The notes below the pieces were generated by a model that saw nothing but the letters and a program-made list of their open reading frames with translations, did not search any database and was not told the origin of the DNA. A stretch of DNA of 64,000 nucleotides from Bacteroidota bacterium (GTDB taxonomy: Bacteria > Bacteroidota > Ignavibacteria > UBA10030 > JAZGDE01), in the NCBI GenBank assembly GCA_036477295.1, contig JAZGDE010000015.1, positions 1,287 to 65,286 of the forward strand. Direction: 5' to 3'. The number at the start of each line of letters is the position of its first letter. Positions within the stretch are counted from its first letter, which is position 1. The position numbers and the translations under genes were made by a program. This document shows, piece after piece, positions 17,531 to 18,245 of this stretch.

Positions 17531-17559
17531 TTGACAAATGGTCGATTTTATGGTATATT
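17531..17559 (+). promoter_or_regulatory. near-consensus sigma70-type promoter
   Basis: TTGACA 17531-17536, 17-nt spacer, TATATT 17554-17559. Confidence 0.6.
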
Positions 17560-17565
17560 TTTGCA

Positions 17566-17741
17566 TTGTAGTTCAAGGAACTTGTTAGCGATGATCATCC
17601 AGCCGAATGCCCGTAAGGAGGTGTGGAGACTTCAGCTCGAAGTTCAAACAGTTCAGTGGTCGTCAAGCCGACCGGTTCGACGGGACCTTTGCAAGGAGGT
17701 TTGAGGGTCCTGGCGTGCAGTCATACGGCTCGAACGGGAAG
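17566..17741 (+). other. ~175-nt non-coding leader or candidate structured RNA 5' of the HNH gene
   Basis: No convincing ORF is present. AGCCGAATG 17601-17609 can pair with CATACGGCT 17722-17730 (one mismatch). A stem at 17681-17687/17706-17712 presents AAGGAGG in its loop. AGTTCA occurs at 17570, 17641 and 17650. Confidence 0.4.
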
Positions 17742-18245
17742 ATGAACAGCAAAGTGCTCGTTCTTAACCAGAACTACGAGCCACTGAGCGTCTGCCACGT
17801 CAAGAAGGCAGTTATCCTTTTGTACCTTGGCAAAGCCGAGTTGATAGAAGCGTGGGACGGAAAGGCCTTGCGTTCCGTCTCGATGTCCCTGCCCTTTCCC
17901 AGTATCGTACGCCTCTCTGTCTACATTCGTATTCCTTACAAAAAGATCATCCTTTCTCGGAAGAACATTCTCCGTCGTGACGGGCATCGCTGTCAATACT
18001 GCGGTCGGAACGATGTGCCGCTCACGGTCGATCATATCGTCGCGAAAGCTCGAGGTGGGGAGGATGCATGGGAGAACCTTGTGTGTGCCTGTATCGAGTG
18101 CAATAACAAGAAAGGCAATCGTACCCCGCAAGAATCACGGATGCCGCTTCTCCGAAAGCCGCTGAGGCCGACCCACGTAACATTTCTCCGGCACTTTGTC
18201 GGTCACATGGATGAACGGTGGAAGCCGTACTTGTTTATGAACTGA
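17742..18245 (+). CDS. compact HNH endonuclease with PLMP-like N-terminal domain (IshB-like architecture)
   Basis: '[33 protein letters not shown]' is followed by 'CQYCG..[33 protein letters not shown]'. ATG 17742 lies inside ORF 17607..18245; in-frame GTG 17715 is an alternative start. Confidence 0.8.
   Translation: [167 protein letters not shown]

Follow-up and report, generated by a model that had tools for sequence, protein, structure and literature searches.

We analysed a 64,000-nt stretch of DNA from a Bacteroidota bacterium of the Ignavibacteria (contig JAZGDE010000015.1; hereafter the window), in which a gene for a small HNH nuclease lies between aroC and trpS. As shown by comparison of related loci, translation would enter the HNH frame at a conserved Shine-Dalgarno (SD) site followed after 4–10 nt by (R-N-C) TTC, usually without ATG, GTG or TTG. 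A conserved translation start that apparently lacks a start codon was the unexpected outcome of this sequence comparison. For the window itself, our preferred reading (probability about 60%) is that the region comprises a promoter and the first gene of an HNH-trpS-scpA-scpB-rluB operon, and that its leader would consist of a 5′ untranslated region (5′UTR), an SD site and an N-terminal extension with a non-canonical start. The features of the region are as follows.

17531–17559, + strand: sigma-70-type promoter, with −35 TTGACA at 17531–17536 and extended −10 TG-TATATT at 17552–17559 (consensus scan 11/12, spacer 17)
17566–17613, + strand: 5′UTR of ~50 nt with no detectable conserved RNA structure (folding, alifold, nhmmer, Rfam)
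17614–17623, + strand: extended SD site TAAGGAGGTG, a 10-nt complement of the anti-SD and the longest found in the window
17628–17633, + strand: putative start-codon-less initiation motif RNC-TTC, here GAC TTC and mostly GTC TTC in relatives (frame-blind regular expression)
17631–17741, + strand: 37-codon N-terminal extension (FSSKFKQFSGRQADRFDGTFARRFEGPGVQSYGSNGK) in frame with the HNH open reading frame (ORF), with predicted disorder
17742–18245, + strand: core ORF of 167 aa from a canonical ATG (ORF list; Pfam HNH)
17742–17927, + strand: N-terminal domain, residues 1–62, with a PLMP-like strand-turn-helix at residues 3–36 and then a β-hairpin (phmmer, profiles, AF2)
17958–18143, + strand: zinc-ribbon HNH nuclease domain, residues ~73–134 (Pfam HNH and HNH_5, TbaIscB match)
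18272–21678, + strand: trpS, scpA, scpB and rluB, co-oriented, probable operon partners (ORF gaps ≤52 nt or overlap)

Proposed translation entry upstream of the core ORF

The HNH frame was open for 147 nt upstream of 17742, as far as a TGA at 17592–17594. The SD site lies in this open stretch, with its core AAGGAGG at 17615–17621, and is followed in the window by TGGAGAC TTC. Other genes of the window carried an SD and an ATG at 5–10 nt spacing, so that a working SD at the HNH gene is plausible; no canonical AUG, GUG or UUG was found ~5–9 nt 3′ of the SD of the HNH gene. This SD was kept in 64 related loci. A frame-blind regular expression, SD-N(0-9)-[GA][TCA]CTTC, was run upstream of the HNH gene in the related loci, and all occurrences of the motif (64/64) were in frame 0 with the HNH ORF. 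Distances from the motif to the conserved Leu/Met codon were 36, 39, 45, 48, 51, 57, 63 or 111 nt, all multiples of 3. The invariance of C-TTC is partly by construction, because the expression required CTTC. The spacing from SD to TTC was 4–10 nt, which is the normal SD-to-start range, and that from SD to GTC was 1–7 nt.

No canonical or near-cognate start was present between SD and TTC in 50 of the 62 distinct contexts. Stops in frame immediately 5′ of the motif were observed in at least six lineages (L020, L053, L055, L058, L161/162, and L087). For L002, L007, L011, L018, L026, L046, L047, and L114 the first canonical in-frame start appeared only within the core, between residues 14 and 98; the position was core residue 14, 19, 24, 49, 61, 70 or 98 in several loci. 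Start codons chosen by gene callers, where present, lay 0–1 nt after GGAGG. The codon before TTC was GTC or ATC in ~79% of the loci strictly without a canonical start, the exceptions being GCC, GAC, GCA, AAA, and GAT.

Other routes into the frame were tried and rejected. Frameshifting from an upstream ORF is excluded by about 16 contexts, in which no frame had a canonical start upstream. A programmed frameshift of the prfB or dnaX kind, with the SD as stimulator, was also contradicted by the absence of a start in the two alternative frames in 27/62 and 39/62 contexts. The ATG at 17607, which would give a 212-aa form (P0001), is upstream of the SD and occurs only in the window and L001; in L161/L162 a TGA intervenes. 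Nor did the window show a genome-wide alternative start signal: the lone other SD-N-RNCTTC with a long open frame (37798) was internal to a 716-aa ORF. A search of the window for an unusual tRNA returned only tRNA-Val(CAC) at 3675–3749, the one tRNA gene of the 64 kb.

The extension itself carried marks of coding sequence. Close pairs with the 39-nt form showed 102 synonymous and 30 non-synonymous codon changes, an excess indicating that the extension is translated in those relatives. Lineages from Bacteroidota metagenome-assembled genomes (MAGs) and Ignavibacteria had a common in-frame peptide directly behind the strong SD, beginning (V)VFS... (VFH... in Ignavibacteria) and ending ...NG[RKI]L. 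The window and its five closest lineages carried a clade-specific in-frame insertion of 72 nt (~17653–17724), which was absent from L166/L167 and all others. In four diverged lineages the resulting window-type extension had no stop and a length of exactly 111 nt. Its summed differences per codon position were 81/46/81, so that second positions changed least, and an Arg-Arg pair was kept via different codons. The preliminary description of this DNA had seen ~175 nt without a credible ORF behind the promoter; the open HNH frame, the 10-nt SD and the coding character of 17631–17741 in relatives overturn that statement.

The first AF2 model (overall predicted local distance difference test score, pLDDT, 58) gave a pLDDT of ~31 over the extension, which is accordingly predicted to be disordered. 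Latescibacterota-type homologues (P0140–P0172) had a different, proline-rich extension of 21–27 aa (MIRAVSQS..P.EP...PRPAPVL), which begins at an ordinary ATG and precedes the same core. These tails suggest that disordered N-termini may characterise the family as a whole.

The codon aligned with ATG 17742 was CTG, TTA or CTN (Leu) in most of 80 loci. ATG at this position was confined to a subclade (the window, L001, L161–167, and proteins such as P0032 and P0100), in which the codon before TTC had drifted to GAC or AAC. As the Leu codon became ATG in the window subclade, two isoforms are possible there. The 167-aa form is certainly possible in the window; judged from these alignments, the window probably makes it and possibly also a form of ~205 aa. 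Production of the long form in the window was given a somewhat better than even chance.

A rather doubtful alternative is that translation in the window starts only from ATG 17742, and that the SD, GAC-TTC and the 111-nt stretch are a decaying relic or a ribosome standby site. The leader would then be untranslated in the window, still without an RNA-partner function. The restriction of ATG 17742 to the subclade with the drifted GAC or AAC would fit such decay, as would the gain of the 72-nt insertion, the fast divergence of the extension and a second open frame. However, the block AAGGAGGTG..GAGACTTCAGCTCG was invariant among lineages whose proteins are 86–98% identical, and ATG 17742 had no good SD of its own. 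The exact 111-nt length, open in four lineages, also argues against a relic, as do the low rate of change at second codon positions and the Arg-Arg pair kept by synonymous codons.

The invariant CUUC was complementary to the GGAG of the SD 4–10 nt upstream (G-C, G·U, A-U, G-C), both in the window (17617–17633) and in 62 related contexts. In the L008 clade alifold chose this CUUC/GGAG mini-helix, which was too weak to call. The mini-helix could contribute to masking of the SD.

Under the preferred reading, a 30S subunit held by the extended SD would occasionally let the initiator tRNA start on GUC, AUC or UUC. Such inefficient initiation would keep a potentially genotoxic nuclease scarce, despite its first position behind a strong promoter shared with essential genes; the non-canonical start thus probably acts as a throttle on expression. 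The infC gene, with its AUU start, is likewise throttled by a non-canonical start codon. Genes of this kind and the HNH gene have in common a strong ribosome-binding site and a poor initiation codon, giving low expression. The HNH gene differs in that GUC and UUC are outside the known natural near-cognates AUU, AUC, AUA, and CUG, in that its invariant element is C-UUC, and in that one gene family preserves the arrangement through lineages of phylum level. In E. coli with a strong ribosome-binding site, AUA, AUC, AUU, and CUG initiated at 1–2% of AUG, and the remaining 57 codons at 0.1–1% of AUG with N-terminal Met (bioRxiv 10.1101/063800).

Several points weigh against this reading. The throttle does not account for the invariance of C-UUC, which holds also for AT-rich genomes, where one would expect UUU; in addition, UUC pairs poorly with the initiator anticodon. 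No codon other than TTC is universal at the motif, and since CUUC can pair with the GGAG of the SD, the motif could be an RNA-level element and not a start codon. The start site is a prediction from comparative sequence. The codon-position signal (81/46/81) is modest, the extension of the window clade evolves fast (~50% amino acid identity), and one other frame of it is also stop-free. Finally, the window clade has GAC in place of GTC or ATC together with its own ATG 17742, so the upstream site may be a relic here.

The core protein and its nearest known relatives

The preliminary description had reported a 167-aa ORF with a zinc-ribbon HNH, and both the ORF and the quoted peptides were confirmed at 17742–18245. 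The zinc ligands are C84/C87 and C117/C120, and the catalytic residues D97-H98, N112, and N121. Across 59 sequences D97, H98, C84, and C87 were invariant, while C117, C120, N112, and N121 were at least 90% conserved. Pfam HNH (PF01844) matched at 1.3e-14 and HNH_5 (PF14279) at 2.4e-14. The top NCBIfam model was guided_IscB ('RNA-guided endonuclease IscB') at 3.9e-22, with 78.8 bits against a cut-off of 175 bits; the score stays under the cut-off because RuvC is absent, and the match to the profile was confined to its N-terminal and HNH stretches. The second NCBIfam model was Cas9d (7.8e-12). Among PDB sequences TbaIscB was the best match, with its HNH at 9.6e-17 (phmmer). These results agree with the earlier assignment of the HNH to the IscB/Cas9 lineage without RuvC.

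Comparison by hhalign with the OgeuIscB family gave an HNH probability of 84% (E 7.6e-6). The OgeuIscB query served solely as bait for real IscB proteins; those fetched were 57–93% identical to the bait and annotated PF14239. The AF2 model built from 59 sequences had a pLDDT of 81.5, with 93–96 in the HNH domain, and showed a strand-strand-helix and a β-hairpin followed by the HNH. Foldseek placed Cas9d/Cas9 HNH, McrA, and Gme HNH first. Pfam and NCBIfam revealed no domain other than the HNH and the N-terminal stretch, and no RuvC. The protein has 167 aa, or ~205 aa with the extension, and homologues mostly have 163–190 aa. It is certain that the HNH is of the IscB type and that RuvC is absent. 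The protein would nick or cleave the nucleic acid of its own host in a metal-dependent manner.

The N-terminal domain was examined by several routes. In phmmer, residues 3–34 aligned with TbaIscB 496–527, the PLMP-containing stretch, a match that is not significant alone. When the N-terminal 70 aa were searched separately, guided_IscB positions 1–32..38 were matched in 7/8 diverse homologues (E 0.006–0.06), and positions 1–32..39 of Pfam RRXRR in 6/8 homologues (E 0.02–0.07, under the cut-off). Alignment by hhalign placed the N-domain on IscB residues 3–39 (E 0.11), and a profile of the N-domain searched against PDB sequences returned no IscB or IsrB chain. The AF2 pLDDT of this domain was ~83–88. 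Foldseek matched DtIsrB 8dmb (IsrB, without HNH) at E 0.17 and probability 0.94, and IscB also at E ~0.17; as only HNH matches were ranked highly, the structure was set aside as proof of a PLMP fold. The literal PLMP motif is EPLS or EPMS here. For the PLMP-type N-terminus proposed in the preliminary description, the best matches therefore always fell on the PLMP region of IscB, but the homology was under significance in every test, which again counts against our overall reading. A PLMP-like N-domain is likely but unproven.

IshB denotes a PLMP domain plus HNH of ~180 aa, predicted to nick, a name given by Altae-Tran et al. 2021 (summarised in PMC10734217 and PMC11610941). We found neither a functional study nor a demonstrated RNA partner in the accessible literature on IshB. 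The window protein appears to have the architecture so named: it shares the size class, the IscB/Cas9-lineage HNH and the lack of RuvC, and its N-terminal strand-turn-helix aligns, under significance, with the PLMP region. It differs in having EPLS/EPMS for PLMP, an extra conserved C-terminal tail, and an N-terminal extension with a putative start-codon-less initiation site. The name also implies residence in an IS200/IS605-type element, whereas this gene is single-copy, lies outside any insertion sequence with no TnpA nearby, and has housekeeping neighbours (htrA, aroC, trpS, scpA, scpB, rluB).

IscB/IsrB OMEGA proteins and Cas9d have the closest HNH by sequence, and the N-terminus aligns, again under significance, with IscB 1–39. 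In contrast with them, the window protein lacks RuvC, bridge helix and TAM-interacting domain (78.8 against 175 bits), and its locus has no omega RNA detectable upstream and no transposon context. The Gme HNH nicking endonuclease of Geobacter metallireducens (PDB 4H9D) is likewise a stand-alone small HNH, 41–47% identical to the window protein over ~55–63 residues (root-mean-square deviation, rmsd, 2.3–3.4 Å). With 112 aa it is HNH-only, without the PLMP-like N-domain and the C-terminal tail.

The names given to many homologues by JGI ('5-methylcytosine-specific restriction endonuclease McrA') raise the question of a McrA-like, modification-dependent restriction or defence nuclease. PADLOC gave partial HNH matches to PtuB and PDC-M01B, and Foldseek a match to EcoKMcrA. 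However, all these matches covered the HNH core only; EcoKMcrA matched by sequence at E 0.1, and the Foldseek alignment to 6ghc had an rmsd of 18.9–20.1 Å. The protein has no modified-base reader domain and no adjoining partner such as PtuA, and its N-domain resembles the IscB N-terminus instead. Its housekeeping synteny and a core 50–98% identical across phyla are also unlike defence islands. We consider a McrA-like role very improbable.

The leader as a candidate RNA

In IscB and IsrB loci the guide RNA is encoded directly 5′ of the ORF in the same orientation. Given this position, and an N-domain resembling the PLMP domain of IscB/IsrB, the preliminary description had asked whether the leader is, or encodes, a structured omega-like RNA that partners the nuclease. 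Rfam, including the HEARO/omega models, gave no match at E ≤ 10 in 16000–20000, and none in 20 related loci either. The minimum free energy of the leader was −55.8 kcal/mol against −58.9 ± 4.2 kcal/mol for shuffled sequences (z = +0.75), and 160/200 shuffles folded at least equally well. In an alifold of five lineages the covariation term was only −1.24 kcal/mol. Profiles of the 5′UTR and of the insert detected only L001 and L161–L164 among 170 loci (nhmmer), with L166/L167 unmatched. Leaders of other clades were 50–150 nt long and not alignable with that of the window. Across homologues, then, no upstream conservation or covariation extended beyond the closest relatives, the very outcome that the preliminary description had named as grounds for abandoning an RNA partner.

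The individual elements noted earlier in the leader are literally present, but amount to no more than chance or coding. The long-range pairing of AGCCGAATG (17601–17609) with CATACGGCT (17722–17730) has 9 bp and one mismatch; as a conserved structure it was rejected, since L001, the closest relative, carries two changes that break it without compensation. A GGGACC...GGGTCC hairpin displays AAGGAGG (17693–17699) in its loop and is kept in 4/5 close relatives, a point in favour of an RNA partner. This candidate was also rejected: the loop encodes Arg-Arg (AGG AGG, or AGA CGA or AGA CGG in relatives), and the stem is lost in L164. AGTTCA occurs at 17570, 17641, and 17650, and two of the copies form the codons AAG TTC AAA CAG TTC AGT. 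Moreover, the region 3′ of 17631 shows selection at the protein level in relatives. Translation would cover roughly two thirds of the leader and leave only ~50 nt untranslated, and the insert is missing from other clades as well as from L166/L167. An RNA partner encoded here is extremely improbable.

Alternatively, the 5′UTR might control the trpS-scpAB operon as a common cis-regulatory leader, for instance an attenuator or protein-binding site. Consensus promoters followed by leaders of 50–150 nt in several clades are consistent with this, as are a CTTTC...GAAAG hairpin with a variable loop just 5′ of the SD in the L008 clade and a terminator-like hairpin in the L003 leader. On the other side, the leaders cannot be aligned between clades, no T-box or other Rfam family was matched, and the window leader showed no excess stability. 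We regard regulation of this type as unlikely for the window.

Two observations on these other leaders are given in their own right. L008, L009, L010, L012, L013, L083, and L086 share a ~150-nt leader with long conserved blocks. The CTTTC-loop-GAAAG hairpin keeps the same stem and lies ~30–60 nt upstream of the SD (alignment columns 102–129); it may be a clade-specific regulatory element, not alignable with the window. In L003, a terminator-like hairpin GCCCGGCATTAATCGGGC followed by TTTT lies ~100 nt upstream of the gene, between promoter and SD, and hints at attenuation in that lineage.

Probable operon, distribution and significance

The TTGACA-17-TATATT promoter that had been proposed at 17531–17559 is present, with an upstream TG, and the inferred transcription start is at ~17566. 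A consensus scan of 16200–22400, from aroC to rluB, returned it as the sole promoter-like site on the + strand, and the block TTGACAA...TATGGTATATTTT was without change across 8 related sequences. Between the genes of the trpS-scpA-scpB-rluB stretch we found neither a promoter-like site nor a convincing terminator. From this, together with the shared orientation and the gaps of ≤52 nt, we infer an operon behind the consensus promoter. On the minus strand, the HNH ORF contains a promoter-like TTGACA-18-GAGAAT (10/12) at 17967–17996, probably by chance, as shuffles yield similar numbers of sites.

The HNH gene is flanked by htrA and aroC on the 5′ side and by trpS, scpA, scpB, and rluB on the 3′ side, with no adjoining transposase ORF. 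The order htrA-aroC-HNH-trpS-scpA-scpB-rluB was common to close relatives. Across several phyla, trpS was found directly downstream of the HNH gene in 93/167 loci; scpA was downstream in 82/167 loci and scpB in 44/167, and some lineages had HNH-scpA-scpB without an intervening trpS. These results support the earlier suggestion of a domesticated or housekeeping role: the gene looks like a vertically inherited housekeeping gene and not like insertion-sequence cargo. The conserved order of HNH, trpS, scpA, and scpB suggests that the nuclease is tied, by function or by regulation, to the SMC-ScpAB machinery. A role in chromosome maintenance would be a guess from this lasting linkage.

The homologue search gave 2911 matches, and at E ≤ 1e-30 at least 504 clusters at 50% identity were counted. 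Homologues 48–98% identical to the window protein occurred in unclassified Bacteroidota MAGs, Ignavibacteria, Kapaibacteria, Kryptonia, Zixibacteria, KSB1, Latescibacterota, Gemmatimonadota, and Chlorobiota. Annotated products of the family had 163, 167, 171, 174, 182, 183, 186, 204, 212 or 214 aa (P0001, P0008, P0012, P0018, P0020, P0032, P0044, and others). The lengths vary because gene callers depend on accidental upstream codons, and most database N-termini of the family are probably wrong.

Taken at its widest, the family may be an FCB-group, IshB-like nuclease that is vertically inherited, linked to SMC-ScpAB and obligatorily translated from a non-canonical start, with an extended SD and invariant C-UUC conserved at phylum scale and lying beyond the known near-cognates. 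We advance this proposal tentatively and give it less than an even chance; the start would then be a throttle, possibly sensitive to IF3 or stress.

According to earlier proposals (PMC12477157, PMC13284715), IsrB became IscB by gaining its HNH from IshB-like proteins, which may also represent an RNA-compatible ancestral state. The large clade described here is housekeeping, transposon-free and apparently RNA-free, which suggests that the PLMP+HNH module fulfils a cellular function in its own right. As a tractable route to that function, the clade bears on OMEGA and CRISPR evolution. At the same time, the dozens of independent lineages in which a strong SD and an in-frame coding start appear to occur without ATG, GTG or TTG would make this family a natural test case for initiation without a start codon.

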